This document shows positions 3,336-47,553 of a stretch of DNA of 47,553 nt, piece after piece. The notes beneath the pieces are model-generated. The model saw only the letters and a program-made list of their open reading frames with translations, was not told the origin of the DNA and made no database searches. The stretch lies in IMG/VR virus record IMGVR_UViG_2734482568_000006; one strand, 5' to 3'. Source of the DNA: a virus. Lineage: Duplodnaviria > Heunggongvirae > Uroviricota > Caudoviricetes. Numbering within the stretch: position 1 is the stretch's first letter; every line of letters starts with the position of its first letter. The position numbers were made by a program, and so were the translations under genes.

Positions 3336-5597
3336 ATGAACGTTATAAAACTGGCTATCGGCTCAGGCATATTATTGCTCAGCTGCGGTGCTTACTCACA
3401 ATCCATCAGTGAAAAAACTAATTCCGACAAAAAAGGAGCGGCAGAATTCAGTCCGCTCAGCGTTTCTGTCGGGAAGACGACCAGTGAGCAGGAAGCTCTC
3501 GAGAAAACAGGCGCGACCAGTTCCCGGACAACGGACAAAAACCTGCAATCACTTGACGCAACAGTGCGTAGTATGCCTGGTACTTATACTCAAATAGATC
3601 CTGGTCAGGGAGCAATCAGTGTGAATATTCGAGGCATGAGCGGATTTGGTCGTGTAAACACTATGGTCGATGGTATTACCCAGAGTTTTTACGGAACCTC
3701 TACCTCCGGAACAACGACGCATGGTTCAACTAACAATATGGCTGGCGTACTTATAGATCCTAACTTACTGGTAGCAGTTGATGTTACACGCGGTGACAGC
3801 AGTGGCTCTGAAGGGATCAACGCCCTTGCCGGTAGTGCAAATATGCGTACTATTGGCGTTGACGATGTAATATTTAACGGTAATACATATGGCCTTCGTT
3901 CACGTTTCTCTGTCGGTAGTAATGGGCTGGGACGCAGCGGAATGATCGCCCTTGGTGGAAAAAGCGACGCTTTTACGGATACGGGAAGCATTGGCGTTAT
4001 GGCTGCTGTGAGCGGCAGTTCTGTGTACTCTAATTTCTCAAATGGTTCTGGAATTAACAGCAAAGAGTTTGGTTATGATAAATATATGAAGCAGAACCCC
4101 AAATCCCAACTGTATAAAATGGATATCAGACCAGACGAATTTAACAGCTTCGAACTTTCCGCTCGAACCTATGAAAATAAATTTACACGTCGTGATATAA
4201 CCAGTGACGACTATTACATTAAATATCATTACACCCCTTTTTCTGAATTAATTGACTTTAACGTAACGGCCAGTACCAGTCGCGGTAATCAAAAGTATCG
4301 TGATGGCTCGCTGTATACTTTCTACAAAACCTCAGCGCAAAATCGTTCTGACGCGCTGGATATCAACAATACCAGCCGGTTCACTGTCGCGGACAATGAC
4401 CTGGAGTTTATGCTGGGCAGCAAACTGATGCGTACCCGCTATGACCGGACCATTCACTCAGCGGCGGGCGACCCGAAAGCGAATCAGGAATCGATCGAGA
4501 ACAATCCGTTCGCACCCTCCGGCCAGCAGGATATTTCAGCGCTGTATACCGGGCTGAAGGTTACGCGCGGCATCTGGGAGGCAGATTTCAATCTCAACTA
4601 CACACGTAACAGGATCACAGGGTACAAGCCCGCCTGCGATTCACGCGTTATCTGCGTGCCACAGGGTAGCTACGATATTGACGATAAAGAGGGTGGCTTC
4701 AACCCTTCAGTTCAGCTTTCTGCTCAGGTAACACCATGGCTTCAGCCGTTCATTGGCTACAGCAAATCCATGCGCGCCCCGAACATCCAGGAGATGTTCT
4801 TCTCTAATTCAGGAGGCGCATCCATGAACCCATTCCTGAAGCCTGAACGTGCAGAAACCTGGCAGGCGGGTTTTAACATTGATACCAGAGATTTACTGGT
4901 CGAACAGGATGCCCTGCGCTTTAAGGCTCTGGCGTACCGCAGCAGGATCCAGAACTACATCTACAGCGAGTCTTATCTGGTTTGTTCTGGAGGTCGTAAA
5001 TGCAGTATGCCTGAGGTGATTGGCAATGACTGGGAGGGCATTAGCGATGAATACAGCGACAATATGTACATCTACGTTAACTCGGCAAGCGACGTTATCG
5101 CAAAGGGCTTCGAACTGGAGATGGATTATGATGCAGGTTTTGCTTTTGGCCGACTCTCTTTCAGCCAGCAGCAAACAGACCAGCCAACCTCCATCGCCAG
5201 CACCTACTTTGGCGCAGGGGATATGACCGAACTGCCCAGAAAATACATGACGCTGGATACTGGTGTTCGCTTCTTCGATAACGCGTTGACCCTGGGCACT
5301 ATCATAAAATACACAGGCAAGGCTCGTCGCCTGTCGCCTGATTTTGAGCAGGACGAACATACCGGCGCAATAATCAAACAGGATTTGCCGCAGATCCCAA
5401 CGATTATCGATCTCTATGGTACTTACGAGTACAACCGCAACCTAACACTGAAACTTTCGGTACAAAACCTGATGAACAGAGATTATTCGGAGGCGCTGAA
5501 TAAGCTCAACATGATGCCAGGTCTTGGTGACGAGACCCACCCAGCCAATTCCGCGCGTGGCAGAACATGGATATTTGGCGGGGACATTCGTTTCTGA
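3336..5597 (+). CDS. TonB-dependent outer-membrane receptor
   Basis: 753 aa with signal peptide, plug-like N-terminal region, long beta-barrel-like body and terminal aromatic residue (..GGDIRF); adjacent to the TonB paralog and ChaN-like gene. Confidence 0.85.
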   Translation: MNVIKLAIGSGILLLSCGAYSQSISEKTNSDKKGAAEFSPLSVSVGKTTSEQEALEKTGATSSRTTDKNLQSLDATVRSMPGTYTQIDPGQGAISVNIRGMSGFGRVNTMVDGITQSFYGTSTSGTTTHGSTNNMAGVLIDPNLLVAVDVTRGDSSGSEGINALAGSANMRTIGVDDVIFNGNTYGLRSRFSVGSNGLGRSGMIALGGKSDAFTDTGSIGVMAAVSGSSVYSNFSNGSGINSKEFGYDKYMKQNPKSQLYKMDIRPDEFNSFELSARTYENKFTRRDITSDDYYIKYHYTPFSELIDFNVTASTSRGNQKYRDGSLYTFYKTSAQNRSDALDINNTSRFTVADNDLEFMLGSKLMRTRYDRTIHSAAGDPKANQESIENNPFAPSGQQDISALYTGLKVTRGIWEADFNLNYTRNRITGYKPACDSRVICVPQGSYDIDDKEGGFNPSVQLSAQVTPWLQPFIGYSKSMRAPNIQEMFFSNSGGASMNPFLKPERAETWQAGFNIDTRDLLVEQDALRFKALAYRSRIQNYIYSESYLVCSGGRKCSMPEVIGNDWEGISDEYSDNMYIYVNSASDVIAKGFELEMDYDAGFAFGRLSFSQQQTDQPTSIASTYFGAGDMTELPRKYMTLDTGVRFFDNALTLGTIIKYTGKARRLSPDFEQDEHTGAIIKQDLPQIPTIIDLYGTYEYNRNLTLKLSVQNLMNRDYSEALNKLNMMPGLGDETHPANSARGRTWIFGGDIRF

Positions 5598-40851: not shown

Positions 40852-41382
40852 TTATTTATTCAGTCCGGCGTCCTGTTCAAAAGGCTCGACATAAAAACTT
40901 TCAGCGCCTTTATTCACCTTGATACCGGCAATGCCTTTCACAGCATCCGGCTCCGCCAGGACGGCTTCCTTGTTCACTTCCTCTTTCGTGCGGATGAAAC
41001 GCTCAAGCCCCATACGGCGCAGCATTTCAATCACACCTTCCACATCACGGCTGACGCTGCATGATGGCGTTCCCAGCCGCCATGACACCGTTCCGGTGGT
41101 CAGATTGGCTGTTTTGGTTTTGCCGCCGTTCGTCAGCTCATCACGGTTGGTTTTGCACCAGTCCTGAATCCCTTTAAAAAGCACTTTGATTTGCTTTTTA
41201 AGATTTTCAATCTGCGGCGTATAACGGGCGGTGATTTCTGCCACTTCGTCATTCATCGCCGTTTCCAGGCGCAGCGCCTCTCGCTGAATATCTCCCAGGG
41301 TGCGGATATCACGGCTGACTTCTTCCCGGGTCTGCGGTGCCGCCTCGGCTGCGGCCTTTAATTTTGTAACGCGTTTAGCCAT
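40852..41382 (-). CDS. gam: Gam host-nuclease inhibitor (Mu Gam / Ku-like DNA end-binding protein)
   Basis: IRTLGDIQREALRLETAMNDEVAEIT...ELTNGGKTKTANLTTGTVSWR...FIRTKEEVNKEA closely parallels Mu Gam. Confidence 0.85.
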   Translation of the reverse strand: MAKRVTKLKAAAEAAPQTREEVSRDIRTLGDIQREALRLETAMNDEVAEITARYTPQIENLKKQIKVLFKGIQDWCKTNRDELTNGGKTKTANLTTGTVSWRLGTPSCSVSRDVEGVIEMLRRMGLERFIRTKEEVNKEAVLAEPDAVKGIAGIKVNKGAESFYVEPFEQDAGLNK

Positions 41383-41393
41383 TTTGTTTTTCC

Positions 41394-41687
41394 TTATTGC
41401 AGTGTGCCTGATGCTTTATGCACGCGGTGGCGTTTAATGATGGCATCCGCTCCAAAAGACTGTGCAGATGCCTGAAATTCCGCTGAGAGAAACTGAATAA
41501 TTGCAGGACTGTGATACTGGAGAATACTTGCATAAACGTCACAGAGTGACGTCGGCCTGTTATCCGTATCACGTTCTGTTTTCACATCCACTCCAATCTT
41601 TTCATGCACTTCAACACAGTCATTGCCTGCCAACTTTTCGTCATGCGAAACATGATTAAATTCAAAAATAACGCGTACTTTGCTCAT
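41394..41687 (-). CDS. Hypothetical small protein, paralog 1 (about 97 aa)
   Basis: Starts MSKVRVIFEFNHV, paralleling the adjacent gene N-terminus MSKVVRIIFEYKEDV. Confidence 0.45.
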   Translation of the reverse strand: MSKVRVIFEFNHVSHDEKLAGNDCVEVHEKIGVDVKTERDTDNRPTSLCDVYASILQYHSPAIIQFLSAEFQASAQSFGADAIIKRHRVHKASGTLQ

Positions 41688-41691
41688 GGAA

Positions 41692-41964
41692 TTACCCCTG
41701 TTGATTAAATTCATTACCGTTAATAACCCCGGAAGCCATGCCTCTGTCTTTCATGAATGCACTGGCTTTCATTGCCACAAACTCTGCGAAGTTTCTGCTT
41801 TCTGCCAGCATAACCACCCCAAAAATCATGGCGGGTCCATTATCTTTCTTCTTTATTCCGGTTGAACGTATATCCAGACTTACCCCTCTGTGCGTGCTGC
41901 CATCAGAGTTTTTGCAGATAACATCTTCCTTGTATTCGAAAATAATGCGTACGACTTTACTCAT
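41692..41964 (-). CDS. Hypothetical small protein, paralog 2 (90 aa)
   Basis: Shares N-terminal motif with 41394-41687; tandem arrangement. Confidence 0.45.
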   Translation of the reverse strand: MSKVVRIIFEYKEDVICKNSDGSTHRGVSLDIRSTGIKKKDNGPAMIFGVVMLAESRNFAEFVAMKASAFMKDRGMASGVINGNEFNQQG

Positions 41965-42242
41965 CCTCTGGTCCTCGTTCTGTTTGGATAACTGACCCGG
42001 CGTCTAACCTCACGGCAGAACCGAATCATGGCATTAAAGGCTTCTTCCTCCGTCACCGCTTCCGGTATCCCCGGAACCAGTAACTGCTCCTGTTCATCAC
42101 GTCCATGACGCGCCATAACCTCAATCACATGCCGTACCGTGGCAGGCTTTCCGGCAACTATCGGCAATGCACCTTCCGGCAGGACGTAACCAAACTCAAT
42201 AAGACCACTCGACCACGCCCATGCAATGAGATTTTTTTTCAC
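41961..42242 (-). CDS. Hypothetical early protein (93 aa)
   Basis: Position in the semi-essential early region; coupled starts and stops. Confidence 0.4.
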   Translation of the reverse strand: MKKNLIAWAWSSGLIEFGYVLPEGALPIVAGKPATVRHVIEVMARHGRDEQEQLLVPGIPEAVTEEEAFNAMIRFCREVRRRVSYPNRTRTRG

Positions 42243-42510: not shown

Positions 42511-42738
42511 TTAGCTGACTTGTTTCGCACCAACAGAACGGCATATTCCGCTGTAAACTTCTGTCGCACCTTCGCGATCAAGTCCGGCAGATATCACCAT
42601 TCGTGTGCGGTCATTAAATTCAAAAAGTAAATCGCCACATTCTTTATTTTCGGCCAGTGAAATCACCTTCACGTTATCGAAATTAACCAGGTAAAAGCGT
42701 CCGTAAATATCAGGAATATTAAATACCGCCATAATCAC
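42511..42738 (-). CDS. Hypothetical early protein (75 aa), at the position of Mu kil
   Basis: Immediately downstream of B, coupled (overlapping stop/start). Confidence 0.4.
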   Translation of the reverse strand: MIMAVFNIPDIYGRFYLVNFDNVKVISLAENKECGDLLFEFNDRTRMVISAGLDREGATEVYSGICRSVGAKQVS

Positions 42739-43676
42739 ACCTGTGAGAGTAATTCAGGGTTGGTATAAACCTCTTTAAAGGCCGCATTAATATGTTTTTC
42801 TGTCAGCGCCGCGCCTTCACCGCTGGCGGTGAGCCACGCCTGGTTAAGCGTATGTGTCAGAACGCGTAACGCTCCCGGCTTTTCAGCGATAGCCTGCATG
42901 ACGGCCAGCTCGGCCTCACCACTGATCCCCCACGCCATGGCAATGGCCAGCACATCCGCCTTTTTGGCCTTGCGAAGTTGTTTTGTACGGGCAAGACGGC
43001 TGAACAGGCGCGATAAATCATCAAAGGCGCGGCGTCCACCTTTAAACAATCCGCGCGGGTTACCAATAAGCACCATCCCGATCCCCGTGGCGTCCTGAAT
43101 TGCCCGGAGTTGCTCCAGACCGTCAATACCAAGATGATCCGCCTCATCCACAATCACCAGTCCACGCGTTCCCATCAGGCGACGGCGGATGGCGCGGGAT
43201 AATGCCCCTTTGTTCGCGCGGGTGTAATCAATCCCCAGCGCATCGGCCAGCTCCAGCAGACACTCCGTGACGCTGGAGTGCGCGGGTGACAGGGTGATCA
43301 TCCAGGTGTTTGGTTGCTCCTGGCAGTAATTACGGGCAGTGGCCGTTTTACCCACACCCGGTACGCCCACAATAACGTTAATACAGCCCATCAGGCGAAC
43401 CGCCTGAAACAGTGCGCGCAGCTCCTGGACTGTCTGAGTTTCCACAAACTGCGGCGGTTCCGGCAGTGCGCTTTGTTTATTCCAGTTCTCATACCAGGAG
43501 CGCAGGGAAGCAGCCACAGCAGCGTTATCGCCTTTATATTTTCCCTTACGGAAAGCCGATAATGTGCCGTCGGAAATTCCCGCCTCTCTGGCGATGGCAT
43601 ACTGCGTCAGTACGCCGCCATCAATAAGTTCATCAATGGTCTTGATTACATCGTTAATATCGGTCATATTATTCAC
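42735..43676 (-). CDS. B: Transposition ATPase B (MuB-like AAA+ target-DNA activator)
   Basis: ALPEPPQFVETQTV ... GVPGVGKT ... WMITLSP ... LSRAIRRRL ... VIVDEADHLG parallels Mu B throughout. Confidence 0.85.
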   Translation of the reverse strand: MNNMTDINDVIKTIDELIDGGVLTQYAIAREAGISDGTLSAFRKGKYKGDNAAVAASLRSWYENWNKQSALPEPPQFVETQTVQELRALFQAVRLMGCINVIVGVPGVGKTATARNYCQEQPNTWMITLSPAHSSVTECLLELADALGIDYTRANKGALSRAIRRRLMGTRGLVIVDEADHLGIDGLEQLRAIQDATGIGMVLIGNPRGLFKGGRRAFDDLSRLFSRLARTKQLRKAKKADVLAIAMAWGISGEAELAVMQAIAEKPGALRVLTHTLNQAWLTASGEGAALTEKHINAAFKEVYTNPELLSQV

Positions 43677-43749: not shown

Positions 43750-45837
43750 TCAGGCCAGCGGATCACTTTCTTTTAATTTCGCTTCGAGCAGTTGCAATCC
43801 CCGCTGGAAATTACGCTCGTATTCTTCATCAGGTTCATCGTCAGCGACCGGTTGCTGAACGGTCACCGTATTACCCACAGGGCGGTATATGTTTTCCAGC
43901 CAGGGCTCCTGCGGCTTGTGCTCCAGCACGTTGACAACCTCATCCTCGGCATCACGGATTTTTTCCTCTGCGCGTTTACGCATGCCTTTAAGGCGCTGCT
44001 GCTGTTTGTAGTATTCCGCGCTGACAGGGAAGGCTTCGCGTTTATTGCCGTCCCATACCGCCTCGCAAATCACGCTGCCATCCGGGCGGCGCACGGTAAT
44101 TCGTTCGGCATCATGAATGTCATAGCTGATAAGTACCTTACGGCCATGCTCGTCACGCAGCTCGGGCGCGTAGTAAATATTATTCAGCCAGCGTATTTCA
44201 CAGCGTCTTACAGGGCGCTCCACCATCGGCCGGAACATATCCCGCAGTTCAACATCGGACAGCCATTCAATTTCCGTGTCCTCTTCCGCCAGGCGTTTTT
44301 TTCTGAACTCCGCCGGGCTGTAATGTTTACCGTTCGGCTTCATGGGTAATTCATCGTGCGGCCGGTTGTTGTACCACTCAACACCGTCACGAATGGCATC
44401 AATCAGTTCAGACCAGGACGGTAAATCACGCATCGCTGACTGCTGCCGGGCGTTCAGCCGTTTGCCCTGTTGCAGGGCACTGAATGCCGAGCGTAAATCG
44501 CGGTTGGTTTTACGTAACGTCTCGCGATCTGCTCCTTTCCCGAAATAGGTGCGGTATTTACGGGCTATGCGCATCGGTAATGTGCGGTTAAGCCGTTCGA
44601 TAATGCCCCGTCCCTGCGGATTACCGGCAATCCCTGTCGGGTGATTAATCCCCAGTCGTGGCAGTATCCCCACAATCTCCTTATCCAGGACGTCGGCGGT
44701 TTCCCCGGAGCCATTATCCGAGTAATACAGAAACGGTTTGCCATGATGGCGAATACCGTGCTGTATGGCACCGGCTACGGCGAAAACATTTTCAGCCAGG
44801 TCAAGGCTCCAGCCCACCACAAAGCGCGTGCCACCGTCGATAACAAAGGTCACTTCCGGTGCGAATGGCCGCCCGTGAACCGGGTGCGCGCATTTCAGCT
44901 TCATGCCGTGACCGTCACCAATCCAGACATAATTCACCGGCATTCTGGACCAGTCGCGGCGCGTGAATCCCTCAAGCTGACGGTATTCACTGCCAGTTAC
45001 CCGGCCTTTTTGTTTCACCACTTCCGGCAGTTTCTTCATTGCGCGGCGAATGGTGTCATAAGAGGGCATGATATCGAGCATATAAGGCTCATCAGCGTGC
45101 CGGTGCTGCCATTCAGCAACAAAATCCTCGTAAGCCTCGGTCATTGGTCGGCCGTTTGACTGGCGATACTGCGCCAGAAATTCGGGCAGCCAGTTAATAT
45201 CTTCGGCTTTTATTTCCTGGCGTTTACCCGGTGCCAGTAAAAGCAGGCGTTCAGCGGCGTTCTGTGCCTTGTTAAAGGCCGCAATCCAGCGTTTCAGCGT
45301 GATTTCACTCAACGCGCGGCTGTTTCCCTTTTTGGCGTTCGCCGTCTCAACCATTGCCACAATGCGCTCGTCCAGTTGTGATCGTGCCAGGCTGTTAACG
45401 AGGAACCGGATAGCTTTAGCGCAGCTGAAACCGGGTTGTTGCGTGAATTTCAGCACCTCACTGACGATCGCAATGCGTGCGTCTGCCACCTGGCGCTGGT
45501 TTTCAGTCAGGGCATTGAGGCGTTCGACCATCAGTTGTGGTGATCCGCGATATGCCTCCACCGCATCAACCACGGCAGACGAGCGTCTGGCCTTTGTCAC
45601 CACCGGAGCCGGTGATTCATCGGCTTTTTGCGTCATCAGTTGCAGGGCATAACGTTCGCGTAATGCCTGCTGTGTCACTTCAGGTAAACAGTCAATGCTG
45701 TATTCAAAACCTTTAGCGCCTTTCTTGCGGCGTCTGCTGGTTTCGCTGGTTGCATACTTCCTGATTGAATAGCGAACGCCTTGCTCCGTTCCCGGCATCC
45801 CCGGTAATCCAACCAGTTCTTTAACTGAAGCAAACAT
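43750..45837 (-). CDS. A: DDE transposase A (MuA-like)
   Basis: 695 aa between ner and B with MuA-like architecture (N-terminal winged-helix end/enhancer-binding region, central catalytic core). Confidence 0.9.
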   Translation of the reverse strand: MFASVKELVGLPGMPGTEQGVRYSIRKYATSETSRRRKKGAKGFEYSIDCLPEVTQQALRERYALQLMTQKADESPAPVVTKARRSSAVVDAVEAYRGSPQLMVERLNALTENQRQVADARIAIVSEVLKFTQQPGFSCAKAIRFLVNSLARSQLDERIVAMVETANAKKGNSRALSEITLKRWIAAFNKAQNAAERLLLLAPGKRQEIKAEDINWLPEFLAQYRQSNGRPMTEAYEDFVAEWQHRHADEPYMLDIMPSYDTIRRAMKKLPEVVKQKGRVTGSEYRQLEGFTRRDWSRMPVNYVWIGDGHGMKLKCAHPVHGRPFAPEVTFVIDGGTRFVVGWSLDLAENVFAVAGAIQHGIRHHGKPFLYYSDNGSGETADVLDKEIVGILPRLGINHPTGIAGNPQGRGIIERLNRTLPMRIARKYRTYFGKGADRETLRKTNRDLRSAFSALQQGKRLNARQQSAMRDLPSWSELIDAIRDGVEWYNNRPHDELPMKPNGKHYSPAEFRKKRLAEEDTEIEWLSDVELRDMFRPMVERPVRRCEIRWLNNIYYAPELRDEHGRKVLISYDIHDAERITVRRPDGSVICEAVWDGNKREAFPVSAEYYKQQQRLKGMRKRAEEKIRDAEDEVVNVLEHKPQEPWLENIYRPVGNTVTVQQPVADDEPDEEYERNFQRGLQLLEAKLKESDPLA

Positions 45838-47034: not shown

Positions 47035-47358
47035 TCACCTGGTTATATGTCGCCAGTCGATACCTTCCAGCAGCATCGCCAGCTGCGCCTGTGTAAGGAA
47101 CACTTTGCCATCACGGGCTGACGGCCAGGCGAAGCGCCCACGCTCCAGCCGTTTGGTCAGGAGGCACAGTCCGTCACTGGTGGACCACAGCAGTTTAACC
47201 TGACTGCCGCTGCGGCCCCGGAAAATGAAAACATGGCCGGACATGGGATCGTCTTTCAGCGCCGTCTGTACTTTCGCAGCCAGGCCGTTGAAGCCATTTC
47301 TCATATCGGTGATACCGGCAACCAGCCAAATTTTGATCCCGGAAGGTAACGGGATCAT
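47035..47358 (-). CDS. tnpB: IS66-family accessory protein TnpB (orf2)
   Basis: MIPLPSGIKIWLVAGITDMRNGFNGLAAKVQ...GHVFIFRGRSGSQVKLLWSTSDGLCLLTKRLERGRF is the typical IS66 Orf2 sequence; its start overlaps the upstream orf1 stop (ATGA). Confidence 0.85.
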   Translation of the reverse strand: MIPLPSGIKIWLVAGITDMRNGFNGLAAKVQTALKDDPMSGHVFIFRGRSGSQVKLLWSTSDGLCLLTKRLERGRFAWPSARDGKVFLTQAQLAMLLEGIDWRHITR

Positions 47359-47553
47359 CGCTTCAGTTCCTGTATCAGCAGAGTCAGGAGCTTTTCGCTG
47401 ACATTGCCATTGAAGCGGAGCGTCCCGTGCCGGAACGTTACCTCACAGCTGATACTGAGGGTTTTCGGGTCCTCTGCGAGCGATTCTGGCTGTTCGGCAG
47501 CTGCATCGAGAGTCACAGGAAGTAGCTGGGGGCTCTCTGAAGAAGGTAATAGC
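47355..47553 (-). CDS. tnpA: IS66-family TnpA (orf1), 3-prime part; the gene continues beyond the window edge
   Basis: Frame ends ..HGTLRFNGNVSEKLLTLLIQELKR with the stop overlapping the tnpB start; no start codon within the window. Confidence 0.55.
   Translation of the reverse strand, partial: LLPSSESPQLLPVTLDAAAEQPESLAEDPKTLSISCEVTFRHGTLRFNGNVSEKLLTLLIQELKR

Follow-up and report, generated by a model that had tools for sequence, protein, structure and literature searches.

The DNA analysed here, referred to below as the window, is a 47,553-nucleotide stretch recorded in IMG/VR as IMGVR_UViG_2734482568_000006, and it carries a Mu-like prophage. The early operon of this prophage runs along the minus strand in the order A, B, a 75-residue open reading frame (ORF), a Kil-like gene, o93, pA, pB, gam, and a Gp11-like gene (Table 1). 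We focus on pA and pB, two small neighbouring genes that are separated from B by three others. The original prediction described two adjacent genes of about 90-97 residues with a near-identical start motif between B and gam, and both are found there. The genes are tightly packed. The stop codon of o93 overlaps the start of pA, the TAA stop of pA (41692-41694) lies 4 nt ahead of the pB ATG, and a gap of 11 nt separates the stop of pB from the ATG of gam. The pB ORF extends mechanically to an ATG at 41714, and the conserved MSK start, preceded by an AGGGG Shine-Dalgarno sequence, lies at 41687. No promoter- or terminator-like sites were found on the minus strand in the B-to-gam interval, where regional site counts are at chance level. 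The 1 kb around pA and pB is 100% identical to an Escherichia coli chromosome, in which the Prokaryotic Genome Annotation Pipeline (PGAP) labels both proteins as hypothetical. The packing, the lack of internal promoter- or terminator-like sites, the PGAP annotation and the selection estimates given below show that pA and pB are real genes within one early operon.

Table 1 Features of the early region of the Mu-like prophage in the window.
Feature	Position	Strand	Description
pA	41692-41964	minus	90 aa, MSKVVRIIFEYKEDV...; PGAP WP_000049428.1; phrog_4107 E=1.7e-54
pB	41394-41687	minus	97 aa, MSKVRVIFEFNHV...; PGAP WP_000049310.1; phrog_2230 E=1.8e-38
Shared 5' motif of pA, codons 1-11	41932-41964	minus	MSKVVRIIFEY; read from sequence
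Shared 5' motif of pB, codons 1-10	41658-41687	minus	MSKVRVIFEF; read from sequence
AGGGG, predicted ribosome-binding site of pB	41695-41699	minus	in last codons of pA; sequence reading, role inferred
gam (Mu Gam family)	40852-41382	minus	PF07352 E=5.5e-42; 57% identity to Mu Gam
o93	41961-42242	minus	93 aa; phrog_1518; stop overlaps pA start (ATGA)
Kil-like gene	42244-42498/42510	minus	84/88 aa; phrog_2679; not a family member
75-aa ORF	42511-42738	minus	phrog_3375; not a family member
B, Mu B-type AAA ATPase	42735-43676	minus	upstream limit of the small-gene cluster
Transposase A	43750-45837	minus	Mu-like early operon

The direct resemblance between pA and pB is beyond chance, weak, and concentrated at the N-terminus. 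BLASTP aligns the two proteins over 76 residues at 22% identity (E=6e-4), and the Smith-Waterman score is 50, compared with 23.9 +/- 4.3 in 5000 shuffles (p=0.0002). When the first dozen residues are removed, the p value is ~0.04 in local alignment and 0.003 when the alignment is collinear. Comparison of the pA family with the pB family by hhalign gives P=6.6e-6 over 42 columns, and this falls to noise (P=0.24) when the N-terminal motif is trimmed, so most of the direct signal sits in the first 11-13 residues. In a set of ~9,900 ORFs taken from 156 related loci, each family hidden Markov model (HMM) always had the other family as its top non-self match (E 0.1-1). At the nucleotide level, ~25 of 30 positions agree between the two 5' ends in a hand alignment with a gap of one codon, and these 5' ends resemble each other more than either resembles other family members. 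The start signature across the family is M[SA]K-V-[VI]-I-[FI]-E. Beyond this motif, the resemblance between pA and pB appears, as far as sequence comparison can tell, through intermediate relatives only.

These relatives connect both proteins with phage Mu. The corresponding gene order in Mu is B-kil-E5-E6-E7-E8-gam, and Mu E6 (gp7; 87 aa, MAKVIIEIKN...) is collinear with pA and pB in alignment; it also matches the PHROG of pB (2230) from end to end (E=0.009). A further ~100 Mu-like loci, more distantly related, were collected from IMG/VR with Gam as the first anchor and the conserved neighbour o93 as the second, and their ORFs were searched. This search yielded pB orthologues located directly after o93 in loci L186, L187, L188, and L192 (phmmer 6e-8 to 3e-5), and three bridging proteins in L194, L200, and L214. 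As a single sequence, the L200 protein matches E6 at 3.6e-5, pA at 2.3e-3, and pB at 2.3e-2. Iterative searches of 5.8k ORFs from four seeds reached the same set, with E values of 1e-4 to 1e-5 just before each family joined; the exception is a group of out-of-frame ORFs overlapping pB, drawn in by frameshifted pB entries.

Family comparisons by hhalign, using the enriched families, support the same grouping. The pA family matches the extended pB family (probability 94.5%, P=7.8e-8, 62 columns), E6 plus bridge (90.4%, P=1.4e-6, 70 columns), and the bridge trio of L194, L200, and L214 (87.2%, P=3.9e-6, 68 columns). Extended pB matches E6 plus bridge (94.9%, P=4.8e-8, 71 columns), pB matches the bridge trio (93.8%, P=1.7e-7, 70 columns), and E6 matches the bridge trio (95.9%, P=6.2e-9, 82 columns). 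Column-shuffled controls of these six comparisons score 10-11 +/- 2 and never exceed 21, whereas the real families score 35-48; within the subset comparing pA, extended pB, and E6 plus bridge, shuffles stay at or below 17.9 against real scores of 37-45. The signal also persists when the motif is trimmed: pB against bridge gives P=1.1e-5 (extended pB 7.3e-8), E6 against bridge P=4.6e-5, and pA against E6 plus bridge P=3.8e-5 over 38 columns covering the predicted helix (shuffled controls at most 16.5). For motif-less pA against the bridge trio alone, P is 9.7e-4. Taken together, these comparisons indicate that pA and pB belong to one superfamily with Mu E6, and that the assignment is robust for pB and moderate for pA. 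The original prediction had named as refuting the case of a similarity confined to the first dozen residues; this describes the direct comparison of pA with pB, and it does not hold when each protein is compared with the superfamily. Identities within the superfamily are low: 19% between pA and E6, 22% between pB and E6, and 18-19% between pA and the E6 and bridge groups.

A different origin of the shared start has to be considered, in which gene conversion or unequal crossing-over spread the motif between unrelated neighbours and pA would be no true family member. The close likeness of the two 5' ends and the loss of direct similarity once they are trimmed would fit such exchange, and natural recombination at the motif is recorded by a deletion in L039, as is exchange by a separate fusion, P0022 (both described below). 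However, motif-less pA still matches E6 plus bridge and, at lower significance, the bridge trio alone, and the two AlphaFold models agree in their predicted order of secondary structure. Moreover, the motif is present in genomes that carry a single copy, where conversion is impossible; it is therefore best regarded as a signature of the family. We consider spread by gene conversion very unlikely.

A few further proteins share the start motif and fall below significance, and we do not count them as members: an 83-aa protein in L205, an 85-aa protein in L228, and a pair of 71 and 76 aa in L128. The L128 pair (3515-3960 of IMGVR_UViG_3300036772_000566) lies after an o93 homologue and before gam. 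Both of its ORFs begin with M[SA]K-V-I and carry net charges of +4 and -6, respectively; their hhalign matches to the family are weak (P=6e-4 and 5e-3).

Both pA and pB appear to be small, soluble proteins with no enzyme domain, judging from their length, composition, and database searches. Their grand average of hydropathy (GRAVY) is negative, and no long hydrophobic stretch is apparent by eye. The pA protein is basic (isoelectric point (pI) 9.3, net charge +3), and pB is mildly acidic (pI 6.3, net charge -2 to -4; the second allele type has a pI of 5.2); single-copy members of the family are acidic. Searches of Pfam, NCBIfam, PADLOC (no match at E<=10), and PDB sequences, with the single proteins as well as with family and superfamily profiles, gave no match. 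Readings of pA and pB as ribbon-helix-helix or other DNA-binding proteins and as a toxin-antitoxin pair were dropped, as no model matched either of them. In the low-confidence AlphaFold2 models, each protein would fold into a long beta-hairpin (approximately residues 4-19 and 24-38), with a long helix after it. Remote homology search, which the original prediction had proposed together with structure search, has thus led through intermediates to the superfamily of Mu E6, and domain, PDB, and fold searches have returned nothing.

The family is narrow. An exhaustive HMM search with a combined pA, pB, and E6 profile recovered 15 proteins from 1.84 billion cluster representatives. Fragments aside, these fall into the three groups already known, two additional pB-like clusters, and three long repeat proteins that are false positives. 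One of the latter, the 710-aa P0097, scored 81 bits through 13 repeats with 'PASMFAVILLSGSRAD', which resembles 'PAMIFGVVMLAESRNF' of pA, and we judged its match to be driven by the repeats. Word-index protein searches returned almost exclusively E. coli sequences, and tblastn of pA and pB against 50,697 phage records found two Shiga toxin (Stx) phage records only, each with an inserted Mu-like region. A scan of genome contigs with the o93 alignment found two Brenneria loci, neither of which has a family member. Within E. coli, the stretch around pA and pB occurs in 232 of 5426 complete genomes (~4%), including many O157:H7 strains at ~94.6% identity. The Mu-like prophage of O157 Sakai is Sp18 (PMC2669165); because the 1-kb stretch is found in many O157:H7 strains, we infer that the prophage in the window is of the Sp18 type. 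The repressor end of the prophage (window ~47048-47553) abuts a truncated SgrR-family regulator gene, according to the annotation of L001, which fits insertion of the phage into a host gene in the manner of Mu.

Hosts of the relatives were assigned by exact-sequence look-up, and all of these relatives are annotated as hypothetical. The pB-like proteins come from Salmonella enterica and Citrobacter braakii, and the bridging proteins from Mangrovibacter (L194), from Citrobacter, Enterobacter, and Kluyvera (L200), and from Serratia (L214). Each of these lineages, as well as Mu, has one copy; two copies are found in the Sp18-type lineage of E. coli only, and the pA subfamily is confined to E. coli. 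The usual neighbour of family members in the other Enterobacterales genera is o93, which the single-copy gene precedes in L194 and L200 and follows elsewhere; in Mu the gene lies among E5-E8. Next after the single-copy gene comes either Gam or a DUF3164 protein. The latter occupies the place of Gam in Salmonella, Citrobacter, and Mangrovibacter prophages (L186, L187, L188, L194, and L200), with Pfam E values of 6e-79 for the L186 protein and 1.5e-85 for the L200 protein.

This distribution bears on how the pair arose. In the family-wide comparison, pA and pB are ~16% identical, whereas pB is 33% identical to the single-copy Salmonella and Citrobacter proteins, and pA and pB are at least as distant from each other as from family members of other genera. 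These identities, together with the single copy elsewhere, argue against a recent tandem duplication. The original prediction of tandem paralogs is therefore right in that the two genes are homologous, broadly speaking, as members of one superfamily, adjacent, and co-oriented; it does not hold in the sense of a simple or recent duplication. Most likely, the pair reflects either an ancient duplication with loss elsewhere or a recombination event that united two subfamilies.

Alleles were compared relative to the window across related prophages. Identity is 89-100% for B, Kil, and Gam, and for pA it ranges from 79 to 100%. The pB gene is bimodal, at either 92-100% or 57-60%, with a single outlier at 82%. 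The gene-wide ratio of nonsynonymous to synonymous divergence (dN/dS) is 0.08-0.35 for pA and 0.26-0.74 for pB, compared with 0.03-0.16 for B and Gam, and it exceeds one for pA or pB in none of the allele comparisons. Selection on both genes is therefore purifying but relaxed. The split between the two pB types is seen in L033-L041, L096-L098, and L110, whose flanks are otherwise 98-99% identical; the second type has a synonymous divergence (dS) of 0.9-1.2 within flanks of 0-0.2, and a hybrid of the two types exists (P0006). A dS of about 1 inside such flanks suggests that an old allele was imported by recombination, not that pB diverged rapidly in place. The idea that the two genes have diversifying specificity thus finds no support: dN/dS stays at 0.08-0.74, and the split in pB points to the reshuffling of old alleles.

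The ratios also speak against the view that pA, pB, or both are remnants without function or artefacts of annotation. Such a view could draw on the absence of any known domain, on the narrowness of the family (15 representatives among 1.84 billion), and on the frameshifted and truncated copies that exist. It is opposed by dN/dS below one across several allele pairs, by conservation of the genes in hundreds of genomes and several genera, by their conserved packing in the operon, and by the measured phenotype of a family member, Mu E6. We regard it as hardly credible.

Rearrangements of the pair are found in natural prophages. In L039/L088 (IMGVR_UViG_2654587996_000001, ~3597-3989), pA is deleted, and its upstream context is fused to pB at the shared 5' motif. 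In P0022, residues 1-49 of pA are fused in frame to residues 80-97 of pB, with the join at a shared internal FG. The deletion at the motif and this fusion show that recombination between pA and pB occurs, and such recombination may help to hold the two N-termini alike. Alleles of the two genes also sort independently; in L110, for example, pA is 96% and pB 58% identical to the window. The two genes are therefore dispensable, as the natural deletions show, variable in copy number, and exchanged as mosaic alleles. Other parts of the cluster vary as well. All that is left of o93 in many E. coli prophages of the Sp18 type (L102, L110, and L088) is a 22-codon 3' remnant, and in L110 (2708-3127) a 139-aa gene resembling Mu E7 lies between the 75-aa ORF and kil, which points to shuffling of cassettes between B and gam.

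The same rearrangements inform the question of whether basic pA and acidic pB form an obligate heterodimer that replaces a homodimer of the single-copy relatives. Their opposite net charges, their tight translational packing, and their joint presence in all but one of the 41 IMG/VR loci found with either query are compatible with such a complex, and L128 may hold a second basic and acidic tandem pair in the same position. The L128 pair, however, is not significantly related to the family, independent recombination of pA and pB alleles argues against tight co-adaptation, and a natural prophage has pB alone. We consider an obligate heterodimer unlikely.

The other small genes of the cluster also differ from Mu in arrangement. 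The Kil-like gene, which resembles Mu Kil in its C-terminal part (E=6e-5), comes second after B, and the slot directly after B, held by kil in Mu, is taken here by the unrelated 75-aa ORF. The PHROG of o93 is labelled 'host nuclease inhibitor'; this label looks unverified for o93.

The function of the semi-essential early genes of Mu is largely unknown (PMC3820752), and a literature search on the 'arm', 'cim', and 'lig' functions of this region gave no usable result. One of these genes has been studied by Silas et al. (bioRxiv 10.1101/2023.04.06.535777; Nat Commun 2025;16:7828, PMC12373910), who named the accessory gene orf63 (NP_050611.1) gnarl2. The coordinates of orf63 (NC_000929 4784..5047, PMC12373910) equal those of Mu E6, so gnarl2 is Mu E6, also known as gp7 or Mup07 (PHROG 10252). 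When gnarl2 was expressed in the wild E. coli strains ECOR1 and ECOR22, the O-antigen bands of lipopolysaccharide (LPS) were shifted downward and T5 infected 10^5-6-fold better, and transposon disruption of O-antigen genes reproduced the effect (PMC12373910). The authors regard Gnarl proteins as too small for enzymes and probably as modulators of host O-antigen enzymes, and they propose superinfection exclusion or avoidance of re-adsorption to debris as the benefit to the phage (PMC12373910). In the preprint, gnarl2 is also counted among conditionally lethal accessory genes (bioRxiv 10.1101/2023.04.06.535777).

We lean towards the explanation that pA and pB are early accessory proteins, deeply diverged from each other, of the Gnarl2 family of Enterobacterales Mu-type phages and act like Gnarl2. 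Mu E6, the sole studied member, alters host O-antigen and phage sensitivity, and a host-modifying role of pA and pB is therefore plausible. The proposal that they are candidates for host takeover or anti-defence is in keeping with this as far as host modification goes; for anti-defence, no PADLOC model among the curated set matched. Like E6 (87 aa), pA and pB are small, lie between B and gam in a Mu-type early operon, and have no enzyme domain. They share with it the N-terminal M[SA]K-V-I-I-E/F strand motif and a collinear arrangement of predicted hairpin, loop, long helix, and G-[VI] tail. There are also differences: Mu has one copy and this prophage two, E6 is acidic and pA basic, E6 is the third gene after B in Mu and pA and pB are the fourth and fifth here, and the O-antigen phenotype has been demonstrated for Mu E6 only.

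Several points weigh against this explanation. Identity to Mu E6 is low, at 17-24%, and direct hhalign comparison of the E6 family with pA and with pB falls short of significance (P=0.0045 and 0.059, respectively), so that the link to E6 depends on the three bridging sequences. Past the N-terminal motif, the membership of pA is moderate (P ~1e-3 to 4e-5). The AlphaFold2 models, built from shallow single-family alignments, are of low confidence (pLDDT 53 for pA and 56 for pB), and fold searches with them found no match for either protein. The existence of a pB-only prophage makes joint action as an obligate heterodimer unlikely. The effect of Gnarl2 is host-specific, and affinity purification-mass spectrometry gave no clear partner for it (PMC12373910), so that transfer of function to relatives of about 20% identity is weak, and the O-antigen role of pA and pB may be put forward only by analogy with such a relative.

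The main rival is a different target within the same family: pA and pB would bind other host or defence proteins, and the O-antigen phenotype would be specific to Mu E6 or indirect. Examples of such targets are part of an intracellular defence system, a factor of the nucleoid or of replication that aids transposition, and a division or stress protein. The low identity to E6 leaves room for such a change, as small phage binders often retarget, and the missing target of Gnarl2 and its listing as conditionally lethal point in the same direction. In addition, the neighbours gam and kil act on intracellular targets, and pA is basic, unlike most family members. On the other side, no positive evidence favours another target, searches of PADLOC, Pfam, and PDB gave no similarity, and the single experimental phenotype of the family concerns O-antigen. 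We hold a different target to be possible but less likely.

Comparison with other known proteins places the Gnarl2-like explanation in context. The Salmonella enterica and Citrobacter pB-like proteins (P0098, L186/L187/L192; PHROG 2230) are orthologues of pB with 28-36% identity, mostly 97 aa long like pB and in the same position directly after an o93 homologue. They differ in being single-copy, without a pA-type partner, in being followed by DUF3164 instead of Gam, and in their annotation as hypothetical proteins. Gnarl1 and Gnarl3, which are accessory genes of lytic phages, and Iap of Pseudomonas phage D3 are functional analogues, compared here by description: they too are small phage proteins of a non-enzymatic kind and interfere with O-antigen synthesis, Gnarl3 via GalU and Iap by blocking the O-antigen polymerase (PMC12373910). 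They belong to other phage types and have other targets, and the authors treat them as distinct genes (PMC12373910). Mu Kil and Gam share with pA and pB the operon and the class of non-essential, host-directed early genes; they have no sequence similarity to pA and pB, and their targets are different and known.

If pA and pB do act like Gnarl2, they would be produced soon after induction or infection, and each would act by binding a host protein that takes part in making or modifying LPS O-antigen, stoichiometrically and not enzymatically. The altered cell surface would keep kin phages from superinfecting the cell and progeny from re-adsorbing to debris. The presence of two copies, one basic and one acidic, might serve different host targets or serotypes, or might allow a heterodimer to form, which is speculative. 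A bolder version, which we find rather unlikely, is that pA and pB constitute a two-component, non-enzymatic seroconversion device of Mu-like prophages of the enterohaemorrhagic E. coli (EHEC) type, in which the paralogues pair or hit separate O-antigen proteins and the mosaic alleles match O-serotypes. If this were true, leakage or induction of the early genes would remodel the O157 or another O-antigen surface and change the susceptibility of the host to other phages. If, on the other hand, the function does not transfer from Mu E6, pA and pB would be ordinary, fast-evolving accessory genes of a transposable prophage.

The family to which pA and pB belong is known but barely characterised. 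What is new here is two members in an unusual two-copy arrangement, and not a new kind of system. The grouping unites PHROGs 2230, 4107, and 10252 and several sets of proteins annotated as hypothetical, from E. coli, Salmonella, Citrobacter, Enterobacter, Kluyvera, Serratia, and Mangrovibacter, in one family, whose sole studied member, Mu E6/Gnarl2, has a striking and mechanistically unexplained effect on O-antigen. It also suggests a testable function for pA and pB, so far unnamed, which ~4% of complete E. coli genomes carry, many O157:H7 strains included. Together, pA, the two types of pB, and the single-copy relatives may provide a natural series for finding the target of Gnarl2 and the determinants of its specificity.

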